The position numbers and the translations under genes are program-made. This document shows positions 4,374-62,843 of a DNA stretch of 64,000 nucleotides, in pieces; the first letter of the stretch is position 1, and the number at the start of each line of letters is the position of its first letter. The notes under the pieces were generated by a model. It searched no databases, was not told the origin of the DNA, and saw only the letters and a program-made list of their open reading frames with translations. This DNA is from a virus: IMG/VR virus record IMGVR_UViG_3300037307_000719, positions 1-64,000 of that record. One strand, 5' to 3'.

Positions 4374-4417
4374 GGTAAAAGCTGAAAATCTGAAATGCGA
4401 AAAAGCTGAAAAAGAGG
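4374..4417 (+). repeat. GCTGAAAN octamer array (direct)
   Basis: GGTAAAAGCTGAAAATCTGAAATGCGAAAAAGCTGAAAAAGAGG. It abuts the start codon of the methyltransferase gene (CAT 4371-4373). Confidence 0.9.
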
Positions 4418-4957
4418 TCAGATGGGAAAGGTGTGTTGCTCGGTGGAGATATGCCCGGCGGAGGCGGGTGGAATGCGGGAGGCGGGCTTGTAGTTGAGGA
4501 TTACGGTGAGGGTGGTGATGAGGCGGAGGTCGGAGGAGCAGCCGAGGTATTCGAGCAGGTCGGGGAGATTGAGGCGCCAGTACATGAGGCGGAAGGGAAG
4601 GGTGTGCATCCAGCGGCGTGCGAATTTGAATTCGTCATCGGGCAGGTCTCCCGAGCGCCAGTTTTTGATGGCGGATTGCTGGAGGTCGATGTGGAACCAG
4701 GATTTTGATTCCGGGTGGAGATAGACAAGTTCGAGGATGGGGTTGTCTGCAAAGCCGATCTTCGCGCCGTTGTTGGCGTAGAAAACGTAGGAGTTGTTGA
4801 GCCTGGGCTTGGCCCAGCGGGTGGCCATGGTGAAGCGTGGTTTGTAGTGGAGGCGTATCCACGCGAGGAAGGTTTGGTGTTCGTCAACGTCCTTGGCGGT
4901 GGACTGGCCGAGGGGAAAGTGGCGGAGGGATGGTTTGGCTGGTTTCGGCTCGTTCAT
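4418..4957 (-). CDS. Hypothetical protein
   Basis: The real part of ORF 4418..5206 starts MNEPKP. ATGA overlap with the upstream gene at 4954-4957. Confidence 0.7.
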   Translation of the reverse strand: MNEPKPAKPSLRHFPLGQSTAKDVDEHQTFLAWIRLHYKPRFTMATRWAKPRLNNSYVFYANNGAKIGFADNPILELVYLHPESKSWFHIDLQQSAIKNWRSGDLPDDEFKFARRWMHTLPFRLMYWRLNLPDLLEYLGCSSDLRLITTLTVILNYKPASRIPPASAGHISTEQHTFPI

Positions 4958-5352
4958 GGGATGTCCTCTGGGATCAAGGTGGAGAAGATGACGGAGAGCG
5001 TGGCTTGAAGGCGGAAGGCATTTTCGAGGTTGTGGCCTTCTTGTTCCCAGTTTTTCTTGAAGCGGCGGAGGGAGGCCAAATTGGGGAGAGAGTTGATGGT
5101 GTTGAGCAGGGGCTCTTGGAGAATCCTGCTTTTGGCAAAGTGGTTTTTGAGGTGGATTTCCATGTGGACGTAAGGAGTATCTTTGTACAATTGGATGAGG
5201 ATGCAATACGGCTCACAGTCGACGACGGCGTCGGACAAAGACATTAAACCGTCCTCGTGATGAGTGAGAGGCAGTTCCATTTTGTTCCACAACTCTTTGA
5301 TGCGAAGAGCGAATGTTTCCGACTCCGTGGTTGCGAAGGGGTGTTCAGACAT
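4954..5352 (-). CDS. Hypothetical protein
   Basis: 132-aa ORF with balanced composition. It is coupled to both neighbouring genes. Confidence 0.75.
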   Translation of the reverse strand: MSEHPFATTESETFALRIKELWNKMELPLTHHEDGLMSLSDAVVDCEPYCILIQLYKDTPYVHMEIHLKNHFAKSRILQEPLLNTINSLPNLASLRRFKKNWEQEGHNLENAFRLQATLSVIFSTLIPEDIP

Positions 5353-5926
5353 GGTGAAAATTGAGGCGCGGGTTGAGGCGAGAGGCGACTTTGGAGGCGA
5401 TGAATTCGCGGAACTCCTGATGGGCGGCGGCGATGGCGCGGCTCATATTGACGGGAGGGCTGGTGGAGATGCCGCAGACGCTCTCAAAGGCTTGGGCGGA
5501 GAAGCGGAATCCCCAGCGCGGGGTGAGGCGCAGATTGGAGCTGCTGGTCGGCGGGCTTTCAGCAAAGGAAACCAAGGCAAGGTGGCGGATGCCGGGCGGG
5601 GGATCGAGATTTTTGAATCCTGCGAGCAGGCGATAATTGTTGCCGTATCCGGACAAGTTAAACGGGAGCAATCCGTTAAAGCCGGGGCCGCCAAGCCACT
5701 GGCGGGAGACGGTGGCGGTGATTTCCACATCGCAGACCTTGTAAGGGGCTTCTGAAAGTTTGCGGGAAACGGTTTCCGCAAAGATGGACCAGCAGCGCGG
5801 ATGAGGGGAGAAGGCGAGGCTTTTGACGCGGGCCACGCCGCTGATCGGGCCGGAGTTGTAAACGGTGTAGGTGTCTGCCAGAGAGCGGGCGACTTTTTTG
5901 CGCTGGGATGAGGTAATGCGGCTCAT
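5345..5926 (-). CDS. Hypothetical protein
   Basis: The real part of ORF 5345..6010 starts MSRITSS (ATG 5924-5926), 2 nt after the upstream stop. Confidence 0.7.
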   Translation of the reverse strand: MSRITSSQRKKVARSLADTYTVYNSGPISGVARVKSLAFSPHPRCWSIFAETVSRKLSEAPYKVCDVEITATVSRQWLGGPGFNGLLPFNLSGYGNNYRLLAGFKNLDPPPGIRHLALVSFAESPPTSSSNLRLTPRWGFRFSAQAFESVCGISTSPPVNMSRAIAAAHQEFREFIASKVASRLNPRLNFHHV

Positions 5927-5928
5927 GA

Positions 5929-6102
5929 TCAGGGCAGCAGCTTGAGCAGGCGGACGAGGAGGTATGCGGCGACGAAAAGGGAACCGGCCAGGCAGGTGAA
6001 GCCGAGGCACCAGCGGAGCAGGCAGGCAGGCAGGCCGTGAGGGGCGGATAGTTCCGCACCGATGAAGATGAGCGGCAGGCCGGGGTAGAGGAAGTGTTTC
6101 AT
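5929..6102 (-). CDS. Small hydrophobic (membrane) protein
   Basis: 57 aa, MKHFLYPGLPLIFIGAEL...LFVAAYLLVRLL, with two hydrophobic segments. The ATG at 6100-6102 is preceded by a heptamer-repeat leader. Confidence 0.5.
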   Translation of the reverse strand: MKHFLYPGLPLIFIGAELSAPHGLPACLLRWCLGFTCLAGSLFVAAYLLVRLLKLLP

Positions 6103-6104
6103 AA

Positions 6105-6157
6105 GTGAGCCGTGAGCCGTGATCAGTGAGGAGAGGAAGAGGAAGAGGAAGAGGGGC
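6105..6157 (+). repeat. GTGA(G/T)C(C/A) heptamer array followed by (GAGGAA)n
   Basis: GTGAGCCGTGAGCCGTGATCAGTGAGGAGAGGAAGAGGAAGAGGAAGAGG. It abuts the start at 6102. Confidence 0.8.
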
Positions 6158-6323
6158 GGCACTTGCGGTGGGTTTTGACGAAGTCCTTGGTGAGAAGCTC
6201 GAATTGACGGAGCTGGAGAGGGACGGGCAGTGGAGCGGCGGCTCCGCAATGCTCGCATTTCATGCGTGGGCGGAAGGAGTCTTTGGTGGTAAAGACGAGG
6301 TGATTGGGGATGGATTCAGACAT
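6123..6323 (-). CDS. Small Cys-containing hypothetical protein
   Basis: 66 aa, MSESIPNHLVF..MKCEHCG... The ATG at 6321-6323 overlaps the end of the VWA gene by 8 nt. The rest of ORF 6123..7046 is rejected. Confidence 0.45.
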   Translation of the reverse strand: MSESIPNHLVFTTKDSFRPRMKCEHCGAAAPLPVPLQLRQFELLTKDFVKTHRKCRPSSSSSSSPH

Positions 6324-7566
6324 TGATGGGGACGTGGATGGTGGTGCCGAAGGGAGCCTTGGCCTTGGGGTGGCCGAAGTTCGCCCAGAGGACGGGGAAG
6401 TCCGGGGCTCGATCCGGGAAGCAGCCTTCGAGGTCGGTGAGGAAGATGAGGCAGGCGGGAGGCTCCGGCAGGTCATTGATGGCATGGAAGACGGGTCGGA
6501 AGTCGGTTCCGCCGCCGCCTTCGGGGACGAATTGGAGGAGTGTGTCACCGGGTTTGAATTCCTCATGCTGATGGATTGTGGTGTCACAGGAGAGGAGGTG
6601 CATGGTTTCGGGGCGGCAGAGGTCCAGCACGCCTTGGAACTCGGAAAGGATGGCTTGGACGAGCTGCGGGTAGCAGAAGATGGAGCCGGAGGTATCGAAG
6701 GCACCGACGATGGGGCCGAGAGCCTCGGATTGGAGGGACGGGAGGATGAAGCCGCGCTGGAGGAAGCGGCGGTTGGGGCGGCGGAACGAGTAATCGTCCC
6801 GGGAGAGGCGGTGGCAGAACTCGCGCACGTAGTCGGTCCAAGGGACGGTGGGCTCGGTGAGTTCCTCGACGAGGGATTTGAGCCATGCGGGGAGGTTGCC
6901 GCGGTTTTTCTGGCGTTCGACGGTGGCGGCCTGGTGGACGGCGGCCTTCCAGTCGTCTTCGAGAGAATCGGACGGTGGCGGCGGATTCCCCCCTGAATTC
7001 CCTGTGCCGTCACCGTCCTTGGGTTCTCCGTTGCCTTGACCGTCACTGGAATCGTCCGGTGAATCCGAGGGATCGGATGCTGGTTGGTCGAAGGCTCCGG
7101 GAGATTGGTAGGAAGGGGGGGGCTGGCCGCCGTTTTTCTGTTGTTGCTGTTCTTCCTGCTCCATGAGGTGGTAGATTTCCTCGGTGGAAAGGCCGGCGTA
7201 TTGCGGCTTGCAGTGGCCGTTTGGGGGCATGGTGATGCGGCCGTCGGTGGCGTGCTGGAGTTTGGAGATGATTTCCCAGGATGCCTGGTCGGCGGCGGCG
7301 TTCCAGCGTTCGAGATCGCGCGCGCCGCGGCGCCAGAGGTGGCCTTGGGCGCAGTGGATGATGTTTTCGATCATCTGGCCGGCGAGCTGTGGCTCGGTGA
7401 GTTTGGCGGCGTAGTCCGGGTTGATGCGGATGGTTTTGCCGTCCACATGGGATGCGGGAGTGGCGGGATCGAGCGAGGATTCCAGCTTGAAGGCGAGGGT
7501 GCCGAAGAAAGGCGCGTCGAGGATGAGGTTGAGGCGGGCTTTTTTGAGGCGATCGTGGAGGGACAT
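6316..7566 (-). CDS. VWA-domain protein with N-terminal DUF2201-like putative metallopeptidase region
   Basis: 416 aa. The N-terminus carries LDAPFFG and HCAQGH. An acidic Pro/Gly/Asp linker follows. The C-terminal region has a MIDAS-like DxSxS motif (GAFDTSGS). Confidence 0.85.
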   Translation of the reverse strand: MSLHDRLKKARLNLILDAPFFGTLAFKLESSLDPATPASHVDGKTIRINPDYAAKLTEPQLAGQMIENIIHCAQGHLWRRGARDLERWNAAADQASWEIISKLQHATDGRITMPPNGHCKPQYAGLSTEEIYHLMEQEEQQQQKNGGQPPPSYQSPGAFDQPASDPSDSPDDSSDGQGNGEPKDGDGTGNSGGNPPPPSDSLEDDWKAAVHQAATVERQKNRGNLPAWLKSLVEELTEPTVPWTDYVREFCHRLSRDDYSFRRPNRRFLQRGFILPSLQSEALGPIVGAFDTSGSIFCYPQLVQAILSEFQGVLDLCRPETMHLLSCDTTIHQHEEFKPGDTLLQFVPEGGGGTDFRPVFHAINDLPEPPACLIFLTDLEGCFPDRAPDFPVLWANFGHPKAKAPFGTTIHVPINV

Positions 7567-7571
7567 GGTGT

Positions 7572-7612
7572 GGTAAAAGCTAAAATGCTGAAAAGCTGAA
7601 AAGCTGAAAGGT
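7572..7612 (+). repeat. GCTGAAAN octamer array (direct)
   Basis: Lies 5 nt from the VWA gene start codon (7566). A palindrome copy follows. Confidence 0.9.
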
Positions 7613-7616
7613 GAGG

Positions 7617-7630
7617 CTCTTGCGCAAGGG
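7617..7630. repeat. Palindrome copy CTCTTGCGCAAGGG (13/14)
   Basis: Intergenic. It abuts the stop of 7631..7897. Confidence 0.9.
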
Positions 7631-7897
7631 TCAGAAGGAGATGGTGAAGGTGAAGTTCGAGATGAAGAGAGAGCCCGCCGGAGAGCCGTTCATGTGGCAG
7701 CCCGGGAAGAATTCAGTGGCCTCGGTTTTGAATGAGACATCGGAAACGGAGGCTTTGCCATTGAGGACGAGGTTCAAGTAACCAGCAATGGTAAGGACAT
7801 AGCTTTTCGGGTCCGTTTGGGATGCTCCGAGGCGATTGGCGGCGGCGATGGAGACGAGTTTTTCGCCAAAGTCGTAGGCTTCTTCAGTGGTCATCAT
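7631..7897 (-). CDS. Hypothetical protein
   Basis: 88-aa ORF between the AAA and VWA genes. Its stop is directly followed by a palindrome copy. Confidence 0.65.
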   Translation of the reverse strand: MMTTEEAYDFGEKLVSIAAANRLGASQTDPKSYVLTIAGYLNLVLNGKASVSDVSFKTEATEFFPGCHMNGSPAGSLFISNFTFTISF

Positions 7898-8258
7898 GGG
7901 AGGGATCGGGCGGGTTCCAGGCGAGGATGGCGGTGAGGGCGACGGTGTCGCGGAAGTCGAGGGAGGAGAGTTCCGGGTAGTGGGAGTTTTCGCGGTTGGC
8001 CATGGTGGTGCGCCAGACGGCGAGGCGTCCGGGGAGGTCGTAGGGGAGGAAGGCGATATTGCCGTTGAGGCAGGCGGAGGATGAGCCGAGCTGGATGGTG
8101 GGAGGCTCGGTGGCGGTGCGCAGCCCCCATGAGAGGCGGAGTTTGCCGCGAATCCAGAGGCCGCCCGGAGCGAGGTCCGGGCGGGTGTTTGGGACGCCGA
8201 GGATGGATATGGCGTGCTGGACGAAGGCGAATTCGTCGGTTTCCTCGAAGATGGTCAT
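7884..8258 (-). CDS. Hypothetical protein
   Basis: 124-aa ORF. The ATG at 8256-8258 lies just downstream (minus sense) of the inverted octamer array. Confidence 0.7.
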   Translation of the reverse strand: MTIFEETDEFAFVQHAISILGVPNTRPDLAPGGLWIRGKLRLSWGLRTATEPPTIQLGSSSACLNGNIAFLPYDLPGRLAVWRTTMANRENSHYPELSSLDFRDTVALTAILAWNPPDPSHDDH

Positions 8259-8264
8259 TGCGAA

Positions 8265-8360
8265 GGCAAAAGCTGAAATTTTGAGACGCTGAAATGCTGA
8301 AATGAAGAGGAAAAGCGCGGAGCTTTTTCAGTATTTCAGCATTTTAGTTTTTCAGCATTT
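8265..8360. repeat. Inverted pair of GCTGAAAN arrays (long hairpin)
   Basis: Left arm 8265-8310, right arm 8323-8360 (TTTCAGC units). It lies between the AAA gene stop and the next start codon. Confidence 0.85.
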
Positions 8361-8361
8361 A

Positions 8362-9357
8362 TTACGAAAGCGCCTTGATGTTGTCGCAGGCCCAGTTGGT
8401 GAAGGCGGAGGTGTTTTGGAGGGAGGATTCGCGGGCGAGGGCATCCCTTACGGCGAAGACCTCGTGTTCCTTGGGCAGGCGTTTGAGGTATTTGGTGATG
8501 GAGTCGAAGTTGGTTTTGGTGGCGCGGAGGCTGAGGGCTACGGCGATGGCGAAGAGGGTTGCGGCGTCTTCGGCGGCGGGGACGCGGGCCTTGTCCGGGT
8601 TTTTGATGCATTCGTCGGGGTCCGGCAGGTTGCGATAGACCTTGAGGAAACCGAGGAACTCGGCGGCCCAGCCCTCGCCGCAGGCACCGGCGAGGATGTC
8701 ATGGGTGTGGAGACCGGCGGCAAAGAGGCGTGCGGCGGCGGCGACGGTGCGTGGGGATGGGGAATTGGTCAGTTCGCGGGTGGGTTTGAAGGCGTGGAGG
8801 ACGTCCATGCCGCGGAACATGACGAAGGCGAGGATTTCCTCGCGGATGTTGTTTTTCTGAGCCCAGCGGACCCACTCGACGTGGTCGGCGTGGAGTTCGA
8901 TGATGGTGTCCCAGCGGGATTTTACGGGTTCGAGGATGGACTGGACGCCGGCCATGTGGGAGGAGTCATTGGTTGCGCCGCAGAAGACGACTTCGTCGGA
9001 GATTTTGTGGCCGTCGATCTCGCGCTGCTGGATGAGCTGCATGAGGGCGGCCTGCACGGCATGGGGAGCCTGGCCGATGTCATCGATGAAGCAGATGGTG
9101 AGGGAATCCGCTTCGATGAGGCGGCGGAGCTGGCCGTAGGGGAGGAATTCCGCGTGTTTGCCGACGATGGCAGGGAGTCCCTTGAAGTCCACGGGGTCCG
9201 AGACGGCGGGGTGCATGATGACGAGGTCCGCCTTGGCGGAGCGAGCGGCGGCGGTGACGATGTCCGTCTTGCCGATGCCTGGAGCGCCCTTGATGAGGAT
9301 TTTGAGGCGGTTTTGGAAGGCGACGGAGAGGGTTTTGGTGAGTTGGGATGGTTTCAT
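8362..9357 (-). CDS. MoxR-like AAA+ ATPase
   Basis: Starts MKPSQL (ATG 9355-9357). Walker A is GAPGIGKT and Walker B is LTICFIDDI. The upstream part of ORF 8362..9558 is read-through of the repeat array. Confidence 0.9.
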   Translation of the reverse strand: MKPSQLTKTLSVAFQNRLKILIKGAPGIGKTDIVTAAARSAKADLVIMHPAVSDPVDFKGLPAIVGKHAEFLPYGQLRRLIEADSLTICFIDDIGQAPHAVQAALMQLIQQREIDGHKISDEVVFCGATNDSSHMAGVQSILEPVKSRWDTIIELHADHVEWVRWAQKNNIREEILAFVMFRGMDVLHAFKPTRELTNSPSPRTVAAAARLFAAGLHTHDILAGACGEGWAAEFLGFLKVYRNLPDPDECIKNPDKARVPAAEDAATLFAIAVALSLRATKTNFDSITKYLKRLPKEHEVFAVRDALARESSLQNTSAFTNWACDNIKALS

Positions 9358-9360
9358 AGG

Positions 9361-9421
9361 GGTAAAAGCTGAAATTTTGAAAAGCTGAAATGCTGAAAAG
9401 CTGAAATGCTGAAAAAAGAGG
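9361..9421 (+). repeat. GCTGAAAN octamer array (direct, about 6 units)
   Basis: Abuts the AAA gene start (9357). Confidence 0.9.
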
Positions 9422-9643
9422 TCAGTAGGCGATGTGGATGGGGGCGATTTTGCGGCGGTGCCAGCCGCGGCGGTGGCGCTCGCGGGCGGTGATTTTGCGG
9501 AGGCGTTGTGATTCCATGAGTGCCTGATGGCGGGCATGGCGGGATTGGAGGTCGGCAAGGGCTTGCTCGACGTTTTCCGGGGTGATTTCAGGGGTGGTTT
9601 TCAATTTCTTGGGCATGGTGTTGTTGGGTGCTTGGTTGGACAT
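9422..9643 (-). CDS. Small basic hypothetical protein; first gene after an AT-rich promoter region
   Basis: Starts MSNQAPNN (ATG 9641-9643). An alternative ATG lies at 9614-9616. Confidence 0.55.
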   Translation of the reverse strand: MSNQAPNNTMPKKLKTTPEITPENVEQALADLQSRHARHQALMESQRLRKITARERHRRGWHRRKIAPIHIAY

Positions 9644-9710
9644 TGGAATAAAATTCAATAGTTGGTAAAGTTGACAAGAAAAAATGGTGATAACGCCAAA
9701 ATTTGGGGAA

Positions 9711-9728
9711 TTGTTCCACGTGGAACAA
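9711..9728. promoter_or_regulatory. 18-bp perfect palindrome TTGTTCCACGTGGAACAA next to an AT-rich promoter-like stretch (operator candidate)
   Basis: Read directly from the sequence. The AT-rich region 9644-9710 lies upstream (minus sense) of gene 9422..9643. Confidence 0.5.
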
Positions 9729-9730
9729 GA

Positions 9731-9780
9731 GAGTGAGCAGTGATCAGTGAGCAGTGATCAGTGATCAGTGGAGGAGAAGA
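9731..9780 (+). repeat. GTGA(T/G)CA heptamer array + GTGGAGGAGAAGA
   Basis: GAGTGAGCAGTGATCAGTGAGCAGTGATCAGTGATCAGTGGAGGAGAAGA. It lies between the 18-bp operator-like palindrome and a 14-bp palindrome copy. Confidence 0.9.
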
Positions 9781-10610: not shown

Positions 10611-10646
10611 GAGTGAGCAGTGAGCAGTGAGCAGTGGAGGAGAAGA
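10611..10646 (+). repeat. GTGAGCA heptamer array + GTGGAGGAGAAGA
   Basis: Abuts the start at 10608. A palindrome copy follows. Confidence 0.9.
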
Positions 10647-11822: not shown

Positions 11823-11864
11823 GGTAAAAGCTGAAAGGTGAAAGCTGAAACGCTGAAATGAAAA
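11823..11864 (+). repeat. GCTGAAAN octamer array (direct)
   Basis: Abuts the start at 11820, with a terminator hairpin on its other side. Confidence 0.9.
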
Positions 11865-13253: not shown

Positions 13254-13299
13254 GGTAAATGCTGAAATTCTGAAACACTGAAAAGCTGAAATGAAGAGG
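13254..13299 (+). repeat. GCTGAAAN octamer array (direct)
   Basis: Abuts the start at 13250. Confidence 0.9.
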
Positions 13300-13716: not shown

Positions 13717-13827
13717 GGTAAAAGCTGAAATTTTGAAACGCTGAAACGCTGAAATGAAGAGGAAGAAAAGGGAGTGGAGCGCTCTGATTTCAGCTTTTCA
13801 GTATTTCAGCATTGCAGCTTTTTTTGA
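13717..13827. repeat. Inverted pair of GCTGAAAN arrays (long hairpin)
   Basis: Left arm 13717-13761, right arm 13786-13826, followed by TTTTTTT. It abuts the start at 13714. Confidence 0.85.
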
Positions 13828-13920: not shown

Positions 13921-13953
13921 GAGTGATCAGTGATCAGTGATCAGTGATCAGTG
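13921..13953 (+). repeat. GTGATCA heptamer array x4 (four GATC sites)
   Basis: GAGTGATCAGTGATCAGTGATCAGTGATCAGTG. It overlaps the 3' end of the 36-aa ORF. Confidence 0.9.
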
Positions 13954-15170: not shown

Positions 15171-15280
15171 GGCAAAAGCTGAAAGGCTGAGAATCTGAAA
15201 GGCTGAAAGGAAGAGATGAAAAAAAGAGAGGAGGCTCTGATTTCAGCTTTTCAGATTCTCAGCATTTCAGCGTTTATTTT
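15171..15280. repeat. Inverted pair of GCTGAAAN arrays (long hairpin)
   Basis: The arms share the core GCTGAGAATCTGAAA. The loop contains GAGAGGAGG (CCUCCUCUC on the minus-strand RNA). It abuts the dnaN start at 15168. Confidence 0.9.
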
Positions 15281-15494: not shown

Positions 15495-15534
15495 AGTGAG
15501 AAGTGATCAGTGAGCAGTGAGCAGCGGAAGAGGT
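15495..15534 (+). repeat. GTGA(T/G)(C/A)A heptamer array
   Basis: GAGTGAGAAGTGATCAGTGAGCAGTGAGCAGCGGAAGAGG, 20 nt from the start at 15475. Confidence 0.85.
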
Positions 15535-18986: not shown

Positions 18987-19080
18987 TTTCAGAAACCCGG
19001 AAGATCAAGCATAATTATGAATAATTACGTTTGTGTGAAGGTGGTGGAGAGGCGGGGGGTGAGCCTGGTGCCGTCGGTGA

Positions 19081-19124
19081 GGTAAAACTGAAAGGCTGAA
19101 ACGCTGAAATGCTGAAAAAAGAGG
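19081..19124 (+). repeat. GCTGAAAN octamer array (direct)
   Basis: Lies just downstream of the stop of 19129..19398. Confidence 0.85.
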
Positions 19125-19639: not shown

Positions 19640-19649
19640 GTTTGTCATC

Positions 19650-19694
19650 TTAAAAGCTGAGATACTGAAATGCTGAAACGCTGAAAAGAAGAGG
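19650..19694 (+). repeat. GCTGAAAN octamer array (direct)
   Basis: Lies in the divergent region between the early and late blocks. Confidence 0.85.
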
Positions 19695-20300: not shown

Positions 20301-21992
20301 ATGCCGAAGTTGAATTTTCTGGAGCGGAGTTTGAGTGGAGTGGCTCCGCAGTGGGCGACGGATCATGCGGTGGCGAGGGCGAGGCTGAAGATGTTCGAGG
20401 CGGAGCCGGACTGGGCGAGCAGCTCGGTGAGGGGGAGGGCGGCGACGGCTGGAGACCAGGCGAACTCGGAAAGCTGGAAGAAGCAGCGGGAGCGGATCGA
20501 GGCGATCTGGGAGGGCCGGGCGATGGAGGAGAACCTGTGCGTGATCGCGGGGCTGCTGGACAAGATTTCGATGTACACCATCGGCAACCTGGAATACCGT
20601 CCGCAGACGGGGGACAAGGCGGCGGACCGGGAGTATGCGGATTATTTCCACGAGAAGTGCGGGGAGATCGATGTGACGGGGCGGCACCGGCTGAAAAAGC
20701 TGGCGGAGCTGGCGGTGCGGAGCATGTTCCGGGACGGGGAGTTCGGGTTTGTGGAGAGGCAGGAGGGACTGGACTACAAGCTCCAGGCGATCGAGGGGGA
20801 CCGAATCGGGAACCCGAACCAGCTCTCGCAGGCGGAGGACAACATCGGGGGGATCAAGATCGACATTGGGACGGGGCGGGTGACGGGGTATGAAATCCAC
20901 CGGAGGACGCGGACGAACCAATACCGGCTGGAGGGGACGATCGGGCCGGAGCGGTTCATCCACCTGTTCCGGCCGACGCGCTGCGACCAGTATCACGGGG
21001 TCTCGATTTTGAAGCCGGTGATTCCGCACGCGAAAGACCTCTACGAGTTGTTCGGCTATGAGAAGGTGGCGGCGAAGTTTGCGGCGAGTTTTGCGGGTTT
21101 GTTGAAGTCCGCCGATCCGTTCAGCCCGGACGGGGCAAACACGTGGGATACGCGGGGGACAGGCTCGAAGCTGCCAATGATGCAGGCGCAGGCAGGCACG
21201 CTGCAACGCATCAGCAAGGGGGAGGAAGTGGTGTTCGCGCCGGGGACGCAGCGGCCGAGCGGGGCGTTCATCGCGCTGGTGCAGGCGATTTTCCGTGAGA
21301 TCGCGCTGGGGACGAACCTGCCGTATGGGTTCATCTATGACATGGCGGTGTTTGGCGGGGTGACGGCGCGGCTGGAGACGCAACAGGCGGACCGGGTGTT
21401 CCAGCGTTTCCGGGAGATGCTGGTGGACACGATGCTGGAGCGGGTGAAGCGGAAGGTGCTGCTGGCGGGCATCGCCAAGCGGGAGATCCGGGCGGTGAAG
21501 ATGTGGAACAAGGGGAGCTGGAACTTCGGCGCGAGCCTGACAGGGGACATCGGCCATCAGGTGCAGGCGGACTCGACGATGGTGACCTTCGGGGTGAAGA
21601 CGCGGACGCGCTGGGCGGCGGAGCTGGGCGAGACGTTCGTGGACCTTGCGGACGAGGCGGCGAGCGAGATCGAAACCTTGCAACAGATTTCCGCGGAGCG
21701 GAACATTCCGCTGGAGCTGCTGAATGCGAGCCTGACGAACCCGACGGAGCTGGTGGCGAACCTGGCGAAGGCGCAAGCGGGGATTTCCGACGAGCCGGAG
21801 CCGCCGCCGGGGATGATCGGCCAGATTGGCGACAAGGGGGCGAAGACGGTGATTGATCTGCTGACGGCGGTGGGCCGGGGCGAGATCGACCGCCAGAGCG
21901 CGCGGATGACGCTGATTACGGTTCACGGGATGGAGCCGAGAGCGGCGGAGGCGGTGCTGCCGGACCCGATGAGGAGCCTACCGGCGGGGTAA
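20301..21992 (+). CDS. Portal protein (lambda-type)
   Basis: 563 aa. Position and overall pattern resemble lambda-family portals. TTGAC box plus GGGAGG upstream. Confidence 0.9.
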   Translation: MPKLNFLERSLSGVAPQWATDHAVARARLKMFEAEPDWASSSVRGRAATAGDQANSESWKKQRERIEAIWEGRAMEENLCVIAGLLDKISMYTIGNLEYRPQTGDKAADREYADYFHEKCGEIDVTGRHRLKKLAELAVRSMFRDGEFGFVERQEGLDYKLQAIEGDRIGNPNQLSQAEDNIGGIKIDIGTGRVTGYEIHRRTRTNQYRLEGTIGPERFIHLFRPTRCDQYHGVSILKPVIPHAKDLYELFGYEKVAAKFAASFAGLLKSADPFSPDGANTWDTRGTGSKLPMMQAQAGTLQRISKGEEVVFAPGTQRPSGAFIALVQAIFREIALGTNLPYGFIYDMAVFGGVTARLETQQADRVFQRFREMLVDTMLERVKRKVLLAGIAKREIRAVKMWNKGSWNFGASLTGDIGHQVQADSTMVTFGVKTRTRWAAELGETFVDLADEAASEIETLQQISAERNIPLELLNASLTNPTELVANLAKAQAGISDEPEPPPGMIGQIGDKGAKTVIDLLTAVGRGEIDRQSARMTLITVHGMEPRAAEAVLPDPMRSLPAG

Positions 21993-22051
21993 AAGCTGAA
22001 AAGCTGAAAGGCTGAAAAGCTGAAAGGCTGAAAAGCTGAAAGGCTGAAAGG
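21987..22051 (+). repeat. GCTGAAAN octamer array (direct, 7 units, most regular)
   Basis: The portal stop TAA lies inside GGGTAAAAGC. Units alternate GCTGAAAA and GCTGAAAG. Confidence 0.95.
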
Positions 22052-22063
22052 CCGGGCGCGGCG

Positions 22064-22082: not shown

Positions 22083-25000
22083 ATGGACCGATATGATGCG
22101 CGGAAGGTGACGCCGGTGGAGGCGAGTGCGAAGCTGGACGGGGTGTATGCGCGGGCGACGAGGGACGGGGTGTTTGCCAAGAGCGGGGTGCGGATGGCGG
22201 TGCCGCATGTGGAGAAGCGGCTGAAGCGGTATTTCCGGAAGCGGCCTGACGGGGCGCTGGAGGGGGAGCTGTGGCGAAGGAAGGCGGGGATCGAGCAGAT
22301 CGCGGGGGAGGCGCGGCGCGGCGGTGATGCGGCGAGGAAGCTGAAGCTGCATGTGTTTCCCGGGCAGGCGTCCCCTCCCCTGCCCTTTGGCGCGGTGCGG
22401 CGGGTGAAGGGGCACAAGGTCAAGGATGACGCGGGGGTGCAAAAGCGGCTGCGGAAAGCCTTGCGCAAGGGTCACGAAGGGGTGGTGGTGCGCGGAGCGG
22501 ACGGGGGGAAGGTGAAGCTGAAGCCGGAGATGGACCGGGAGTGGAGGGTCGAAGGTCTGAAAGTCGGAAAGTCGGGAGGTCTGAAGAGGAAGACGGTTCT
22601 GACGATGCGGACGGAGGACGGGAGGCCGTTCAAGGTTCAGGCGGGTGGCGGGGCGATGGGGGCGAAGGCGGGAGACCAGGTGACGGTGCGTTACTCGGGA
22701 TTGACACGGAGCGGGAAGCCGAAGGCGGCGGTGGCCGTGCGGGTGCGCAACGAGAAGGATTTTTCCATGAAACATTTCAAGACGAAGCCGGAGCTGACCG
22801 AGCGTGAGCGGGAGCAGGTTTCCAAGGACCGGAAGGCGCTGATGAAGGGGGCGGTTTTGACGGCTCTTGGCGGTGTGGCGGCGTATGGGGTTTTGCGGAT
22901 GCCGAAGTTCCGCAACGTGAAGGAAACGAGGACGCCCGCGGTGCTGCGGATGGGTCAGCGCGGGGTGGTAACGGGCCGGATGCACGGGCCGAAGCTGCCG
23001 GTGCCGGAGAAAGTGAAGGAAACGAGGACGCCCGCGGTGCTGCGGATGGGTCAGCGCGGGGTGGTAACGGGCCGGATGCACGGGCCGAAGCTGCCGGTGC
23101 CGGAGAAAGTGAAGGCACCGGGATTCAAAGAGGCGGCGCGGCTGAACAACGAGCGCAAGGGCGGGGTGAAGCGGCTGGTGAAGGCGGCGGAGCTGAAGCG
23201 GGAGCGGGCGTATGGGGCGCTGAAGCCACCGAGCGCGAAGCGGCTGGCCAAGCTGAACCCGGCGGTGCGGGCGCGCTACGAGCGGATGGACGAGGTGGCG
23301 CGGAGCAGCGGCCAACGGGGCTGGCTGCCAAGCGCGGCGACGGCAAAGAACACGAAGAAGGCACAAGGGCTGGGGGCGACCGGACAACTCAGCCCGGGCG
23401 AGGTGAAAAACGCGAGGAAGACCTGGCGGGTGAAACGGCAGAAGGCGCGGCAGGACTTGCTGCAATACCGGGAACAGAAGAATTTTTCCATGAAAACGCA
23501 GGACGACAGGAAGCAGGGATCAAACGGCGAGAAGCTGAAAAACGCGGCGGTGGCTGGCGGTGCGCTGGCCAGCGGCGGCGCGGCGGTCTATGGAGCGCGG
23601 CAGTGGGGCAAAACGAACAAGGCGCTGCGGGCTCACGCGGACGCTCTGGCGGCGCAACTGACGCCGAAGGAGATCGCCCGGCAAGTGGGCGCGGAGGTGG
23701 GCGGCAAGGCGAAGCGGACGCTGCGCGGGTATTTCCCGACCTTCATCAAGGCGGGGAAGAAGGTGAGCAAGGTGATGAAGACGCGGGTGAAGGGATTTGA
23801 AGAAAAGCCGCTGACGCATGAGGAGCTGGTGCAGCGGTATGGGCAAAGTCAGAAAAGCGGCAGACAGAAGAAAGAAGATCGGAAGCGCAAGCGCGGGTGG
23901 TTGTTTGAGACTCCTGCCTCGCGGTTGCTGAATTTTGGCAATGCGGAGCAGTGGCGGCGGGAGAGCGACCAGCGGTATGGGAGTCCGCTGAAGGGGGCGA
24001 TGGGCCTTGAGAAGGGGTATTACCGGAAGGACGCGGACGGTGAGCCGATCATCGAGGCACTGCCATTCCGGCAGGCGCAGGTCATCAAGAGCACCTACAA
24101 CAAGGCGAAGAAGGTGCAGAAATACGGCACGCGGGGTAGCGGCCTGCTGAAGGACGCGGGCGCGGTGGTGGCGGGGAGGCCAAGGGAAAAAGACCGCGCC
24201 GGGCGGGAGAAGAAACGCGAGTGGGAAAAGCCGTGGTTCAAGACGGCGGCGCGCAACGCGGCGATCACCGGGGCGATCCTGGTGGGCGCGAAGCATGTGG
24301 CGAAAGATCCGGAGAAGTGGCGCAAGCGGGTGAACAAGCATGTGATCCGGCCGATCAACCGGAAGGTGCCGGATTATTTGAAGGAGTGGGAGGAAGGGGT
24401 AAAAGCTGAAACGCTGAAAAGCGGAAATGCTGAAATGAAGAGTTTTGCGACTCCGGCGGGGAAGCTGTTGGGGAAGTTTGAGAAGCCCTTGCGCAAGGGT
24501 GGGCTGGGGAAGTTCCTGGGGCCGAGTGAGGTGCAGCGGACGGTGGCGAAGCAGCGCAAGGCACTGGCGGGCCGGGTGAAGGCGGCGGCGGCAAAGGGGA
24601 ATCAAAAGGCGGCGGCGATGGTGCCGCGAGTGAAGCATCACGCGGCGATGAAAGAGGCGGGCGTGAAGGCGTCGGAGCGGCGGCAGAAGGATGCCATCCG
24701 GGGCTTAAAAAAAGGCGCGGGGATCGCGGCTGGGGGTGCGGTGCTGGGCGGGGCGGCGATGAAGCTGCACGCGGACCAGCCGGAGGACCGGAAAGTGCGG
24801 GTGGGTGCGCGGTTCCGCAATGCTTTGGTGGGGGCGGCGGCGGGCTCTTATCTCGGGGCCGGTCTGCACACGGGCAAGAGCGGGTTCCGTGGGGCACGGC
24901 TTGGCGCGCTGGCGGGCGGGTTGATCGGCGCGGTGAGCAATCCGAAGCGCAAGCAGGTGATTGAGGATTTGCCGGTGGCGAGCTTTGCGGTAAAAGCTGA

Positions 25001-25391
25001 AACGCTGAAAAGCGGAAAAGCTGAAATGAAGAGGTTTGGGACTCCGGCCTCGCGCTTGCTGCATTTCGATGTGGATGCGGCGATGGCGGGGTGGGACATT
25101 CGTGATCCGAGGGGAAAGAGTGCGCGGGTGTATGCGCCGGGATCGAGGCGGCGCCACCGCAGGCCGAAGGAGTGGCATGAGCGGAAGGAGAACCGGGACA
25201 AGCTGGCGGCGGCGGCGGTGATCGCGGCAGGCGTGGGCGGGCTGGCGGTGGGCACGAAGCTGGGCAGGAAGCTGGCGCTGCGGAAGCAGGCGGCGGTGCC
25301 CTCCCCTGCTCCGGGCGGCATCAGCTACGGGCCGAAGATGGGACCGCGCAGCACGGTGAGGCCGGAAGGGTTTTACGGGCGGAGACGTTGA
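22083..25391 (+). CDS. Giant Lys/Arg/Gly-rich protein with an N-terminal ATP-dependent DNA ligase domain
   Basis: Ligase/nucleotidyltransferase motifs are present: I KLDGVYA, III LEGELW, IV EGVVVRG, V KVKLKP, plus an OB-like segment. The rest carries glycine-zipper hydrophobic segments and repeated modules. The ATG at 22083 is 19 nt from a TTGAC box. Confidence 0.75.
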   Translation: MDRYDARKVTPVEASAKLDGVYARATRDGVFAKSGVRMAVPHVEKRLKRYFRKRPDGALEGELWRRKAGIEQIAGEARRGGDAARKLKLHVFPGQASPPLPFGAVRRVKGHKVKDDAGVQKRLRKALRKGHEGVVVRGADGGKVKLKPEMDREWRVEGLKVGKSGGLKRKTVLTMRTEDGRPFKVQAGGGAMGAKAGDQVTVRYSGLTRSGKPKAAVAVRVRNEKDFSMKHFKTKPELTEREREQVSKDRKALMKGAVLTALGGVAAYGVLRMPKFRNVKETRTPAVLRMGQRGVVTGRMHGPKLPVPEKVKETRTPAVLRMGQRGVVTGRMHGPKLPVPEKVKAPGFKEAARLNNERKGGVKRLVKAAELKRERAYGALKPPSAKRLAKLNPAVRARYERMDEVARSSGQRGWLPSAATAKNTKKAQGLGATGQLSPGEVKNARKTWRVKRQKARQDLLQYREQKNFSMKTQDDRKQGSNGEKLKNAAVAGGALASGGAAVYGARQWGKTNKALRAHADALAAQLTPKEIARQVGAEVGGKAKRTLRGYFPTFIKAGKKVSKVMKTRVKGFEEKPLTHEELVQRYGQSQKSGRQKKEDRKRKRGWLFETPASRLLNFGNAEQWRRESDQRYGSPLKGAMGLEKGYYRKDADGEPIIEALPFRQAQVIKSTYNKAKKVQKYGTRGSGLLKDAGAVVAGRPREKDRAGREKKREWEKPWFKTAARNAAITGAILVGAKHVAKDPEKWRKRVNKHVIRPINRKVPDYLKEWEEGVKAETLKSGNAEMKSFATPAGKLLGKFEKPLRKGGLGKFLGPSEVQRTVAKQRKALAGRVKAAAAKGNQKAAAMVPRVKHHAAMKEAGVKASERRQKDAIRGLKKGAGIAAGGAVLGGAAMKLHADQPEDRKVRVGARFRNALVGAAAGSYLGAGLHTGKSGFRGARLGALAGGLIGAVSNPKRKQVIEDLPVASFAVKAETLKSGKAEMKRFGTPASRLLHFDVDAAMAGWDIRDPRGKSARVYAPGSRRRHRRPKEWHERKENRDKLAAAAVIAAGVGGLAVGTKLGRKLALRKQAAVPSPAPGGISYGPKMGPRSTVRPEGFYGRRR
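22459..22471. repeat. Palindrome copy CCTTGCGCAAGGG (13)
   Basis: Inside the ligase domain (translated ALRKG). Confidence 0.9.
22917..23108. repeat. Perfect tandem duplication, 2 x 96 bp
   Basis: 22917-23012 equals 23013-23108. Each copy encodes VKETRTPAVLRMGQRGVVTGRMHGPKLPVPEK. Confidence 0.95.
24407..24442 (+). repeat. GCTGAAAN array inside the giant ORF (third unit GCGGAAAT)
   Basis: Translated as VKAETLKSGNAEMK. The unit that would place a TGA in the ORF frame reads GGA instead. Confidence 0.9.
24486..24499. repeat. Palindrome CCCTTGCGCAAGGG (14/14)
   Basis: Inside the giant ORF (translated PLRKG). Confidence 0.95.
24989..25033 (+). repeat. GCTGAAAN array inside the giant ORF (third unit GCGGAAAA)
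   Basis: Translated as VKAETLKSGKAEMK. It shows the same stop-removing substitution. Confidence 0.9.
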
Positions 25392-25392: not shown

Positions 25393-25496
25393 GGTAAATG
25401 CTGAAAACTGAAACGCTGAAATGCTGAAAGGAAGAGGGCGGAGGCGCATTTCTTTTTCTGATTTCAGCGTTTCAGCATCTCAGCGTTTCAGCGTTT
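25393..25496. repeat. Inverted pair of GCTGAAAN arrays (long hairpin)
   Basis: Left arm 25393-25436, right arm 25458-25496. It lies between the giant ORF stop and the next TTGAC box. Confidence 0.85.
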
Positions 25497-26312: not shown

Positions 26313-26350
26313 GGGTAAATGCTGAAACGCTGAAAAGCTGAAACGAAGAG
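26313..26350 (+). repeat. GCTGAAAN octamer array (direct)
   Basis: Lies immediately after the tRNA. Confidence 0.85.
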
Positions 26351-27643: not shown

Positions 27644-27697
27644 CGCCCCGGTGTCCGGATCGCTCTCCAAGCGGTCGGGGCGCCGGGGTTTTTTTGG
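27644..27697 (+). terminator. Rho-independent terminator (plus strand)
   Basis: GC-rich hairpin CCCCGG..CCGGGG followed by TTTTTTT. Confidence 0.7.
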
Positions 27698-27735
27698 GTA
27701 AATGCTGAAACGCTAAAAAGCTGAAATGCTGAAAG
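27696..27735 (+). repeat. GCTGAAAN octamer array (direct)
   Basis: Lies immediately after the terminator T-run. Confidence 0.85.
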
Positions 27736-27748
27736 GGGCGGGGGGACG

Positions 27749-61759: not shown

Positions 61760-61810
61760 GATATTTCAGGAAGGCGTAGGTAGTGGCGGGTGGGATGAGG
61801 TGGGTTCTTT

Positions 61811-62185
61811 TCAGGTGGAGCGGGTGCGGGTGTCAGGGTCTTGAAGGACGGCGGTGAGGTAGGTGATGGCTTGAAAATCGGTGATGATTTCTTTTTCAAT
61901 GGCCTGAAGGAGTTCTCCGCGCCAAAGGGAAAGGGTTTCCTTTAAAGAGAGGTGTTTATGGGATAATGTGAAAACATCACGAAAAGGCTGATCGTTGGTG
62001 AGAGCCCATGCTTCGAGTTGGTTTTCGACCATGAATAAAAGGAACCGGATTTTCACGCTGCCTTTCCAGAATTCCGTTTTTGGCATCTTTTTGAAGCCTC
62101 CGTTTTGGATAACGGAAACACCGGCAAGAGCGGCGGCGCGGTGGATGAAATCCAACTTGGCCTTACCGTCTTCACTGAGAGTCAT
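61811..62185 (-). CDS. Hypothetical protein
   Basis: 124 aa starting MTLSEDGK. The upstream Arg-rich part of ORF 61811..62371 is rejected. Confidence 0.65.
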   Translation of the reverse strand: MTLSEDGKAKLDFIHRAAALAGVSVIQNGGFKKMPKTEFWKGSVKIRFLLFMVENQLEAWALTNDQPFRDVFTLSHKHLSLKETLSLWRGELLQAIEKEIITDFQAITYLTAVLQDPDTRTRST

Positions 62186-62612
62186 GGTTGTTCTGGTTGG
62201 ACGATTCCGCCGCAGTGATCGCAGATGCCGCCGACAAAGCCGCGGGGTTCGCCGCAGCATTCGGGTTGCGGGCTGGCGTGATGACGAGGATCGATTCCCG
62301 GTAAAGAGGCAGCGGGATATTCGTGATGGCTTCCGGTTCGACCTCGAAGGTGAGAGTGGTGATTCCCTCATTGTCGGTGCCGGCTTGGATTAGAACTGCG
62401 GGGATGCGGAGGTTCATTTTTGCTCTGGGTATGAATCCGTGGTGTAGAAACTTCTCGAAGGATAGCTCTTCGATGTTGTGGATTTGTTGTTGTAGGTTTT
62501 CAGTCGCTTCTTTTTTTGCGGCTGTGAATGCTTCTTCGGGTTTTTGTCCGATCTTGCGGTTGTAGTAGCCATCGATGATATGGCCTGCGTTGAGTTCTTC
62601 GTGGAGGTTCAT
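62172..62612 (-). CDS. Hypothetical protein
   Basis: 146 aa starting MNLHEELN. ATGA overlap at 62609-62612. Confidence 0.65.
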   Translation of the reverse strand: MNLHEELNAGHIIDGYYNRKIGQKPEEAFTAAKKEATENLQQQIHNIEELSFEKFLHHGFIPRAKMNLRIPAVLIQAGTDNEGITTLTFEVEPEAITNIPLPLYRESILVITPARNPNAAANPAALSAASAITAAESSNQNNHDSQ

Positions 62613-62806
62613 TTTGGTTGGATGGTGATGGTTCCGGAGAGGCCTGGTTCGGCGGTGTCCTTGGCGAGGCGGATGGCCTTGTCCTTGGTGGGGGCGGTGC
62701 CTTGGAGGTTGCCGTTGAAGCGGACTTCCCAGCCTTTGCGGGAGCGGCGGCCGAGGATTTGGATAGTGCAAGGGCCGATGCGGATTTCGGTGGAGATGGA
62801 GTTCAT
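62609..62806 (-). CDS. Small hypothetical protein
   Basis: 65 aa starting MNSISTEIR. The ATG abuts an octamer array. Confidence 0.55.
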   Translation of the reverse strand: MNSISTEIRIGPCTIQILGRRSRKGWEVRFNGNLQGTAPTKDKAIRLAKDTAEPGLSGTITIQPK

Positions 62807-62807
62807 C

Positions 62808-62843
62808 GGGTAAAAGCTGAAAAGCTGAAAAGCTGAAATGAAG
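62808..62843 (+). repeat. GCTGAAAN octamer array (direct)
   Basis: Abuts the start at 62806. Confidence 0.9.

Follow-up and report, generated by a model that had tools for sequence, protein, structure and literature searches.

The sequence analysed here, referred to as the window, is a 64,000-nucleotide stretch (positions 1 to 64,000) of the IMG/VR virus record IMGVR_UViG_3300037307_000719 and belongs to an uncultured tailed phage. Short tandem arrays of the octamer GCTGAAAN occur at 17 loci of this window and are most likely a host-type, Shine-Dalgarno (SD)-free gene-expression signal. The minus-strand genes of the window encode, among others, a methyltransferase-like protein, a DUF2201 protein, an AAA ATPase and a sliding clamp, and the plus-strand genes encode a lambda-type portal, a major head protein and the large terminase (TerL). 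A primase, a helicase, a single-stranded DNA-binding protein (SSB, 49225-49686) and one tRNA-Met are also encoded.

Octamer arrays in the window

The arrays contain three to seven units of GCTGAAAN. Thirteen are single and four have an inverted partner (at 8326, 13788, 15241 and 25462), and the motif GCTGAAA lies on the plus strand in every primary array (17/17). The two-unit pattern GCTGAAANGCTGAAA, with at most one mismatch, has 49 matches in the window versus 0.01 expected from shuffled sequences, and the period-8 arrays were recovered independently by Tandem Repeats Finder (TRF). Positions 27,737-62,809 are free of arrays, the sole match there being a degenerate two-unit one at 38,201. The pattern count and TRF confirm the preliminary description, in which 17 octamer arrays of one strand orientation were said to be absent from 27.8-62.8 kb. 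The arrays and their surroundings are as follows.

4374..4417 (+): array 1; GGTAAAA, four units (two degenerate) and AAGAGG; head abuts ATG 4373 of the methyltransferase-like gene 2832-4373 (-); directly after the tail, TCA (stop of the gene upstream)
7572..7612 (+): array 2; four units; 5 nt from ATG 7566 of the DUF2201 metallopeptidase/VWA gene 6316-7566 (-)
8265..8310 (+): array 3; head GGCAAAA; 6 nt from ATG 8258 of gene 7884-8258 (-); left arm of a pair
8326..8356 (-): inverted partner of array 3; begins directly past the stop of the AAA-ATPase gene; pair predicted at -30 kcal/mol in minus-sense RNA
9361..9421 (+): array 4; six units with period-16 substructure; 3 nt from ATG 9357 of the AAA ATPase gene 8362-9357 (-); stop of the upstream gene directly after the tail
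11823..11862 (+): array 5; 2 nt from ATG 11820 of gene 11182-11820 (-); upstream in the minus sense, a terminator-like GC-rich hairpin with a U-run
13254..13299 (+): array 6; 3 nt from ATG 13250 of gene 12378-13250 (-)
13717..13762 (+): array 7; 2 nt from ATG 13714 of gene 13322-13714 (-); left arm of an inverted pair
13788..13818 (-): inverted partner of array 7; predicted hairpin of -35 kcal/mol, z = -6.1
15171..15214 (+): array 8; head GGCAAAA; 2 nt from ATG 15168 of the sliding-clamp gene 14041-15168 (-); left arm of a pair
15241..15271 (-): inverted partner of array 8; predicted hairpin of -49 kcal/mol, z = -7.7; the rare unit variants GCTGAGAA and TCTGAAA are common to both arms
19080..19124 (+): array 9; head without adjoining start codon, the next minus-strand start (18805) being about 280 nt off
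19649..19694 (+): array 10; at the divergent early/late junction; head CTTAAAA abuts CAT 19646-19648
21988..22052 (+): array 11; seven units; portal stop TAA 21990-21992 in the head; followed by a GTTGAC box and ATG 22083
24398..24441 (+): array 12; within the open reading frame (ORF) 22083-25391; third unit GCGG; its end, ATGAAGAG, is the start of a 'MKSFATPA' module
24989..25034 (+): array 13; paralogue of array 12, 591 bp downstream, with the GCGG change too; end ATGAAGAGG ('MKRFGTPA')
25393..25437 (+): array 14; directly past the stop of the big ORF (25389-25391); left arm of an inverted pair
25462..25492 (-): inverted partner of array 14; predicted hairpin of -52 kcal/mol; upstream of ATG 25526
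26314..26350 (+): array 15; just past tRNA-Met (26231-26306); 23 nt before ATG 26367
27697..27737 (+): array 16; directly past a terminator-like hairpin and T7 run; followed by a GTTGAC box and ATG 27771
62809..62845 (+): array 17; three units, tail GAAGAAA; head 2 nt from ATG 62806

The head GGTAAA[AT]GCTGAAA is exact in 12 of the 17 arrays. The tail GAAGAGG is exact in six, within one base in about seven and absent from four, so the fixed head and tail first attributed to each array apply to a part of them. GAAGAGG itself is enriched in the window (42 occurrences versus 15 expected). The variant units TCTGAAA, TTTGAAA and GCGGAAA are mixed into the arrays.

Between eight and ten array heads lie 0-7 nt from a minus-strand ATG. 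Eight contacts are sound (4373, 7566, 8258, 9357, 11820, 13250, 13714 and 15168), and the starts 13250 and 13714 were confirmed by an independent gene call on an identical contig. The ninth contact originally listed, ATG 62806, opens an ORF of only 65 codons, which is overlapped by a better ORF; an additional (tenth) contact is present at 19648. The partner 25462..25492 is the only array of the window in the TTTCAGC sense upstream of a plus-strand gene. For eight array-led minus-strand genes the energy of the duplex with the anti-SD sequence is about +1 kcal/mol, in agreement with the early report of SD-less starts adjoining arrays in the minus-strand early genes. The portal stop codon was likewise placed correctly within an array head (21990-21992). 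In a search of the window against Rfam 15, tRNA-Met was the sole match, and the arrays fit no curated covariance model.

A second family of repeats, (AGTGAKC)n, has the layout CAT - array - GAAGAGG - stop, as in the octamer arrays. Its members are listed below.

6105..6154 (+): CAT-AA-(GTGAGCC)3-4, then (GAAGAGG)3
9732..9770 (+): (AGTGAGC/AGTGATC)5.6, then GAGGAGAAGA, the palindrome CCCTTGTGCAAGGG and a terminator-like hairpin
10612..10636 (+): (AGTGAGC)3.6; 3 nt from ATG 10608 of gene 10303-10608 (-)
13922..13953 (+): (AGTGATC)4.6 at 100% identity; between the stop of the clamp gene and the array at 13788
15495..15524 (+): (AGTGAKC)4.3; CAT at the left, CGGAAGAGG-TCA (stop) at the right

Three further repeated elements were identified. 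The 12-bp palindrome CCTTGYGCAAGG has 26 distinct sites between 3952 and 61491 versus 0.05 expected (e.g., 3952, 10648, 17167, 17901, 19627, 24487, 30695, 39108, 43380, 52067 and 59411). It is both intergenic and intragenic across the entire window, is present in the related loci L162, L163, L172 and L173, and may function in binding, modification or restriction, or form a small hairpin. The box GTTGAC is followed by ATG after 10-18 nt in 12 cases, all on the plus strand, versus 3.8 expected. These boxes (including those at 19711, 20281, 22063, 25506, 27748, 31069, 39635, 40733 and 57065, +) lie mostly at the starts of plus-strand (late) genes. In relatives the box makes up the loop of a GC-rich hairpin (L162: CCGCCGCGTTGACGCGGCGG) or has the sequence GGTGACAC; a promoter of late genes or an operator acting on translation is a possible function. 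Inside the minus-strand gene 16085-17077, 10.8 copies of a 15-nt unit (16333-16494, 97% identity) encode an acidic peptide repeat.

Unit turnover at orthologous sites of related phages

No cultured relative of the phage was found by megablast, and its TerL is at most 26% identical to that of any deposited phage. No related prophage was found among the verrucomicrobial metagenome-assembled genome loci examined. The array distribution, together with a portal of Verrucomicrobium sp. that is 36% identical, is the basis for the putative assignment of the host to Verrucomicrobiota. Window 9735-13774 is matched at 100% identity by a 4,040-nt contig of run SRR12687326 (Logan assembly), so the same phage has been sampled independently; this contig is the only one found that shares a protein with the window.

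The portal encoded by the record IMGVR_UViG_3300028549_002218 (loci L162 and L165) shares 85% identity with that of the window, and the record is syntenic with window 4-27.7 kb. It contains no GCTGAAA arrays. At the orthologous sites of L162, other units are repeated 4.0-4.7 times (27-36 nt), in most cases with the same purine tail, GAAGAG. These units are AGAGACC, TGAATNT, GGTCAGC, AGACGCA, GAGATTG, AGACAGA and TTGACGGGG, and each multi-copy unit family is present in both the minus-strand and the plus-strand blocks. In L163, (GAAGCAC)3.4 occupies a site within the ORF that follows the portal gene. At the site of array 15, after the tRNA, (AGATAGN)5 abuts the ATG in L163 and (TGAATTT)4 is present in L162. 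Some orthologous sites are arrayless in one relative. The more distant L014 (portal 53% identical) has retained GCTGAAA arrays. The pattern (AGAGACC)3 was found at only four viral loci versus 41 for the GCTGAAAN pattern. Any mechanism is constrained by these data: site, copy number and purine/pyrimidine polarity are kept, and the unit sequence is free to change.

The ORF 22083-25391 (1,103 codons), located after the portal gene, has a third-position GC content of 0.82 throughout. The arrays at 24398 and 24989 keep open precisely its reading frame. With a period of 8, the third unit alone would put TGA in frame, and this unit reads GCGG in both arrays. The orthologous ORFs of L162 (1,388 aa) and L163 read through arrays of stop-free units. 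Each in-ORF array of the window is immediately followed by an ATG or GTG, the first codon of a conserved 'MK[SR]F.TPA..LL' module, and the modules are separate genes in the relatives L172, L173 and L174. Judged by this arrangement, the in-ORF arrays would fit internal initiation sites that also need read-through. The product of the ORF is very basic and of low complexity, with three 'F.TPA..LL.F' modules, and the gene contains a perfect 96-bp tandem duplication (22917-23115) and the 591-bp one. In the relative L170 (11734-18749; GCA_040384025.1, JAWVHG010000505.1), the place of array 11 and the big ORF of the window, directly after the portal gene, is taken by an insertion that comprises a gene for a PIN-domain protein and all of a type I restriction-modification system (HsdM, HsdS and HsdR-like).

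The read-through of the in-ORF arrays rules out stops in all frames as the purpose of the element. Such stops had been ascribed to every array on the plus strand; they are present in 14 of the 17, and the two arrays within ORF 22083-25391 are among the others. An action as all-frame translation insulators, or an origin as mobile repeats resembling miniature inverted-repeat transposable elements (MITEs), is highly improbable, although the stops in most arrays would suit the former and the heads and tails common to the copies the latter. The L162 and L163 units at the same sites are stop-free in every frame (among them AGAGACC, GGTCAGC, AGACGCA and GAGATTG of L162), two window arrays are read through by a real ORF, and the stops lie on the wrong strand for the minus-strand genes. 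Single arrays have neither terminal inverted repeats nor target-site duplications, and the orthologous sites hold arrays of other units rather than being empty. Both roles are therefore disfavoured among the four candidates put forward in the preliminary description, of which a translation leader is the best supported.

Strand skew, array orientation and inverted pairs

The GC skew of the plus strand is extreme over 2-28 kb (0.26-0.40), irrespective of gene direction. At third codon positions C accounts for about 65% in minus-strand genes, and G for about 63% in the plus-strand genes of 20-28 kb. The relatives at 66-74% portal identity have a skew of -0.07 to 0.09, and the skew of the 2-28 kb region points to a lineage-specific strand-asymmetric mutation or replication regime. 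The purine-rich version of the array lies on the G-richer strand in 69 of 84 viral arrays and in 132 of 189 arrays of the bacterial (host) loci described below. Since the skew of the window ignores gene direction, this rule results in a single array orientation. The orientation originally reported as independent of gene direction thus holds, but as a special case of a wider G-rich-strand rule. The third-position GC skew of genes led by TTTCAGC is -0.26 in hosts and -0.48 in viruses, that of genes led by GCTGAAA is +0.02 and +0.14, respectively, and the median of all genes in host loci is -0.07.

Arrays are abundant in the high-skew genomes (the window and L162, skew 0.23-0.30) and few in the low-skew relatives (0-4 per 13-22 kb). 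The arrays of the latter are pyrimidine-rich in the sense of the downstream plus-strand gene. L172 carries (CTCAACC)4 on a plus-strand gene, and L173 carries (CATTTCAG)3.6-TTTTACC-ATG. Directly after the portal stop of L173, the position of array 11, a full inverted pair ends in TTTTACC...ATG. Because the pyrimidine-rich (leader) sense is found on plus-strand genes of these relatives, it looks like the canonical orientation, and the solitary purine-rich arrays in the plus-strand block of the window look like surviving upstream arms.

In the four window pairs the inverted partner lies 32-33 nt downstream. The head always faces the adjacent gene, and inverted pairs are arranged tail-to-tail (about 20 versus at most one in hosts, seven versus none in viral loci). 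The layout between co-directional genes is stop - (GCUGAAAN)n - loop - (NUUUCAGC)n - UUUUACC - AUG. The window pairs are predicted to fold at -30 to -52 kcal/mol (z of -4.7 to -7.7). Their stems are long but AU-rich, and the U-run (UUUUACC) belongs to the stem; a terminator consensus scan did not report the pairs and showed no enrichment of terminators. A test of G-U asymmetry gave no sign of selection on a hairpin in the sense RNA, the opposite strand folding better in 13 of 15 pairs. This better folding on the G-rich strand suggested C-to-T pressure on that strand.

The same asymmetry would fit an origin of the arrays as by-products of strand-asymmetric mutation, i.e., microsatellite-like slippage expansions homogenised by gene conversion in unconstrained intergenic DNA, in a genome whose strands are under strongly different mutation pressure, and tolerated rather than selected. 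Their abundance in two high-skew genomes and rarity in low-skew relatives, the period-16 substructure of some arrays, the complete turnover of units, the arrayless orthologous sites and the hundreds of other host arrays of period 7-9 without start-codon association are all consistent with such an origin. It is nevertheless unlikely, since copy number has a sharp mode, with four units in 63 of 86 viral arrays (73%). The viral arrays do not have the broad, slippage-driven spread in copy number of phase-variable simple sequence repeats. All array pairs found in independently assembled contigs had 100%-identical flanks, and in six of six the arrays are identical. The precise distance to the start codon, the biased orientation, the conservation of the octamer across a phylum and the avoidance of in-frame stops within the ORF also argue against a by-product.

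The placement on the G-rich strand is also what would be expected of a polar signal oriented by replication, in which octamers are read on one strand relative to a fork or translocase, as are Chi, the FtsK-orienting polar sequences (KOPS) and primase sites. The Chi site of E. coli is an octamer beginning with GCTG, as are the units of the arrays; the mean spacing of arrays in the window is about 1.5 kb, and the phage encodes a primase, a helicase and a clamp. However, 35 kb of the same genome is array-free, unrelated units occupy the same sites in a close relative, and in hosts the C-rich coding strands of array-led genes account for the strand rule. Chi and KOPS are dispersed single copies, many of them intragenic, with a leading-strand skew across the entire replicon, and share with the arrays the strand bias itself; the arrays are clustered, intergenic, adjoin start codons and are absent from 27.7-62.8 kb. 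A polar signal is accordingly very improbable.

Since the arrays occupy one strand and the early and late genes are transcribed from different ones, each early (UUUCAGCN)n leader has its complement in the (GCUGAAAN)n arrays of late transcripts, including the seven-unit array after the portal gene. Duplexes of the two, in cis or in trans, might be cut by RNase III or block initiation, and such antisense pairing or processing could switch off early genes or array-led host genes. The complementarity follows directly from the strand rule; the cis pairs have strong predicted folding, the multi-copy unit families of L162 each occur in both strand blocks, and the same leaders are present on host mRNAs. 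The split of unit families over both blocks is, however, expected by chance in about one case in four (an estimate from family sizes), the hosts themselves carry both senses, and leader-sense arrays on plus-strand genes of low-skew relatives mean that complementarity between blocks is not general. Antisense pairing is thus improbable as the function of the arrays. Slightly less probable still is the specific form in which late-transcript (GCUGAAAN)n would serve as an antisense sponge silencing the early (UUUCAGCN)n-led phage mRNAs and array-led host mRNAs. Were this doubtful scheme correct, a host-type initiation signal would have been built into an RNA-based temporal switch and host shut-off.

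Distribution in Verrucomicrobiota and a putative role at gene starts

The three-unit GCTGAAAN pattern was detected at 41 IMG/VR loci and at more than 120 genome loci, the latter overwhelmingly from Verrucomicrobiota among the matches listed. The array-bearing groups among these matches are Akkermansiaceae, Luteolibacter, Opitutae, Pedosphaera, Limisphaerales, Chthoniobacterales and Puniceicoccaceae. The element is thus no peculiarity of the phage: it is common in chromosomes of Verrucomicrobiota before housekeeping genes. The form (NTTTCAGC)n-TTTT[AC]CC-ATG is located directly 5' of ordinary cellular genes, often inside operons. Among the products of array-led host genes are 3-dehydroquinate (DHQ) synthase (aroB, Luteolibacter locus L068), DegT, UDP-glucose dehydrogenase, FGGY kinase, E2 acyltransferase, epimerases, glycosyltransferases, HlyD, ExbB, Cas3 and, in Akkermansia muciniphila, an RsmE-like methylase whose gene has a five-unit array (L106). 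Of the host genes identified next to arrays, about one half are part of envelope-polysaccharide pathways (L058, L072, L108, L043, L150, L105, L073, L102 and L113), including those for DegT, UDP-glucose dehydrogenase, epimerases, GT4, GT9, O-antigen ligase and cytidylyltransferase.

An ATG-initiated ORF of at least 100 codons begins within 30 nt downstream of 28 of 134 host arrays in the TTTCAGC sense, versus 6 of 134 in the opposite sense, against a background of 8.3%. The association with ATG in host loci is therefore orientation-dependent (p = 5e-6 and 2e-4), and the distance from array to start peaks at 7-14 nt. Both senses occur in hosts. The possibility that the arrays are host DNA of random orientation, raised at the outset as a refutation, is borne out as to their being common in the host lineage, but neither random orientation nor a lack of association with gene starts was found. 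In the phage and the hosts alike, the array often begins 0-25 nt after the stop codon of the preceding gene, and a conserved promoter motif was not found ahead of it. Many arrays are thus intercistronic and must therefore be transcribed.

The host loci L042-L161 (812 kb) contain 744 tandem arrays, with period peaks at 7 (149), 8 (210) and 9 (94). A test of start-codon association was negative for the many heptamer and nonamer arrays of these loci outside the GCTGAAAN family. In some Opitutae loci (array tails of L043 and L150) a conserved TTATTTCACC motif follows the arrays, and in L043 (1432-1470) the final unit, GCTATAAT, is a perfect -10 hexamer. Promoters may therefore adjoin some of the host arrays.

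The arrays are tentatively regarded as a transcribed leader or intercistronic element that would support or tune SD-independent translation initiation, probably through an OB-fold protein (S1 or a cold-shock protein, Csp). The family would consist of short tandem repeats at transcribed gene boundaries throughout Verrucomicrobiota. Its working form would be a pyrimidine-rich RNA, 5'-(CCUCUUC)-(NUUUCAGC)3-7-UUUU[AC]CC-(0-10 nt)-AUG, an SD-free leader or intercistronic spacer spanning about -10 to -45 from the start codon. Approximately four evenly spaced binding sites of 7-9 nt would then aid or tune initiation or re-initiation. A length of 7-9 nt is the footprint of one OB-fold domain, and S1 has four RNA-binding domains. 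The unit size would match such a footprint, with S1 or cold-shock-type proteins as likely readers, and about four units would fit the four domains of S1 or a short run of Csp molecules. Complementary (GCUGAAAN)n upstream, past the previous stop, may act as an anti-leader arm that sequesters the leader in a long intercistronic hairpin, with a possible role in attenuation, processing or termination. Early genes, encoded on the C-rich minus strand, would use the leader form; in the plus-strand block mostly the purine-rich complement would survive, since purines and G are kept on the plus strand throughout 2-28 kb.

Several observations weigh against this proposal. We infer the RNA-level action from position alone, and with it the identity of the reader and the effect on translation. 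The purine-rich (GCUGAAAN)n abuts start codons in other phages, and the plus-strand arrays of the window are in that sense; both orientations at starts are hard to reconcile with a strictly sequence-specific RNA reader. The units are entirely different between close relatives. The hairpin is more stable on the strand opposite the mRNA of the adjacent gene (13/15 pairs, p = 0.002). The early genes of L170 and L174 are equally SD-less and these relatives have almost no arrays, so SD-less initiation in this lineage can do without them. For about 40% of host arrays the crude gene calls gave no matching gene boundary. Accessibility was computed as base-pairing probabilities over 16 initiation regions carrying native, flipped, shuffled or genome-replaced arrays. 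The predicted values did not change on replacement, flipping or shuffling of the array (0.54, 0.51, 0.56 and 0.54; p > 0.4).

Further readings were rejected. Arrays are not a substitute for a missing SD, because all minus-strand genes of the window lack an SD with or without an array, and array-poor relatives are equally SD-less. Structure avoidance is not the reason for the arrays or their orientation, given the lack of an accessibility difference among native, flipped, shuffled and replaced arrays. Readings as ECF-type (TGAAAC...CGTT) or leaderless promoters gave inconsistent spacings when checked by hand.

The main alternative to the leader, though rather unlikely, is that the arrays are DNA operators, in which each unit of 7-9 bp binds one dimer of a cooperative protein, such as a ribbon-helix-helix (RHH)-like one, and about four contiguous units, bound over gene starts, repress or time the early genes. 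Units differing between related phages would then be switched specificities, like heteroimmune operators. The regulator MetJ uses tandem 8-bp boxes, and the heptad of the omega protein is WATCACW, which the second repeat family resembles when read as GATCACT. The omega/ParB system of pSM19035 binds contiguous 7-bp heptads, direct or inverted, with a four-repeat threshold (PMC9499535). The arrays resemble RHH operators in their contiguous units of 7-8 bp, their copy number of about four and their location at gene starts, which are adjoined by both orientations, and the sites persist while the units turn over between relatives. A scan of 4,000-23,999 for sigma-70-type promoters gave three sites versus 2.6 expected, none inside an array, so that sigma-70 promoters do not account for transcription control in 4-24 kb. 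However, comparison of 30 phage proteins with Pfam (including ten small ORFs, E up to 1) revealed no RHH or other DNA-binding domain, although a very short or divergent RHH protein could escape such a scan. RHH operators have few sites per replicon and a known protein that binds duplex DNA, whereas each phage has 17-21 array sites and a host genome has many. No fewer than six specificities would be needed in L162, and the occurrence of the same octamer across many verrucomicrobial orders would require a phylum-wide regulator rather than a phage repressor. Tight operon junctions in hosts and an orientation tied to the downstream ATG (28 versus 6) are unusual for operators.

Elements of the same kind as the proposed leader have been described, and the preliminary statement that no known element has this architecture was too strong. 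TAACTGA direct repeats occur in marine Beggiatoaceae, cyanobacteria and some Bacteroidetes (MacGregor 2015, PMC4679880). These repeats form 2-6 tandem copies, at times interrupted by a related unit, mostly intergenic and in one orientation, and end a few nt from starts without a canonical ribosome-binding site (RBS); some overlap the end of the upstream ORF and a few are inside ORFs (PMC4679880). The downstream genes are of all kinds, and function was inferred, with S1, Csp and CsrA proposed as readers (PMC4679880). The octamer arrays share with them the tandem direct repetition (3-7 units with related variant units), the orientation and proximity to start codons (8-10 of 17 at 0-7 nt in the window, 28 versus 6 in hosts) and the lack of a canonical RBS between array and start (about +1 kcal/mol in eight genes). 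Their unit, unlike TAACTGA, is an octamer (GCTGAAAN) whose eighth base is free, and the arrays are therefore an analogue and not the same family. They further differ in occurring in Verrucomicrobiota and being phage-borne, in their conserved head GGTAAA and tail GAAGAGG, in their frequent tail-to-tail pairs, in the presence of both senses at starts according to G/C skew, and in the replacement of units at orthologous sites.

Heptamer repeats of the short tandemly repeated repetitive (STRR) type in the cyanobacterium Nostoc PCC 7120 include (TTTTGAA)3-4 and (GACYAAT)8 near starts (bioRxiv 10.1101/2022.06.06.494920). They are contiguous, lie within 100 nt of starts or promoters and comprise many unit types per genome; one array overlaps a start codon, and array deletion alters reporter output (bioRxiv 10.1101/2022.06.06.494920). 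The effects are modest and mixed between transcription and translation, and no phage link or strand rule was described (bioRxiv 10.1101/2022.06.06.494920). Units related to TTTTGAA are the ATTTTGAA variants of the window and TGAATTT of L162. The cyanobacterial repeats have a period of 7 and belong to another phylum, whereas the period here is 8.

Comparable too are unstructured SD-less leaders and S1-dependent translational enhancers; the enhancers are pyrimidine- or AU-rich and, to our knowledge, are not strict tandem repeats. The predicted leaders resemble them in being U/C-rich and G-poor, directly 5' of AUG, SD-less and within the region contacted by S1 on the 30S subunit. Unlike these enhancers, the conserved features of the arrays are the periodicity and the copy number of about four, and predicted structure is not lowered by the array. 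Intercistronic RNase III hairpins are present in T7-like phages, and the REP and BIME elements (repetitive extragenic palindromes and bacterial interspersed mosaic elements) are hairpin repeats. The four inverted pairs are similar in forming long imperfect predicted hairpins between cistrons, but their arms are tandem octamers that also occur singly and are more stable on the non-coding strand.

In the literature no description was found of the octamer, of such an element in Verrucomicrobiota or phages, or of a verrucomicrobial promoter or leader motif matching the arrays. Start-codon-proximal tandem repeats without an RBS are already known, and their function is equally unproven in the TAACTGA and cyanobacterial cases. 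The octamer unit, the phylum, the carriage by phages, the head and tail motifs and the tail-to-tail pairs are new, as are the strand rule, the read-through arrays and the turnover of units at conserved sites.

If the leader reading is true, a periodic landing pad of about four units of 7-9 nt would be a recurrent means of SD-free start or tuning of translation, used throughout the phylum, including the gut bacterium Akkermansia, and copied by its phages. The arrays would help to predict gene starts and expression from sequence in Verrucomicrobiota and to design expression cassettes for these bacteria, and would give a signal for predicting the hosts of uncultured phages. Together with the TAACTGA and cyanobacterial repeats, they would point to tandem repeats near start codons as a general class of bacterial regulatory elements that has been overlooked.

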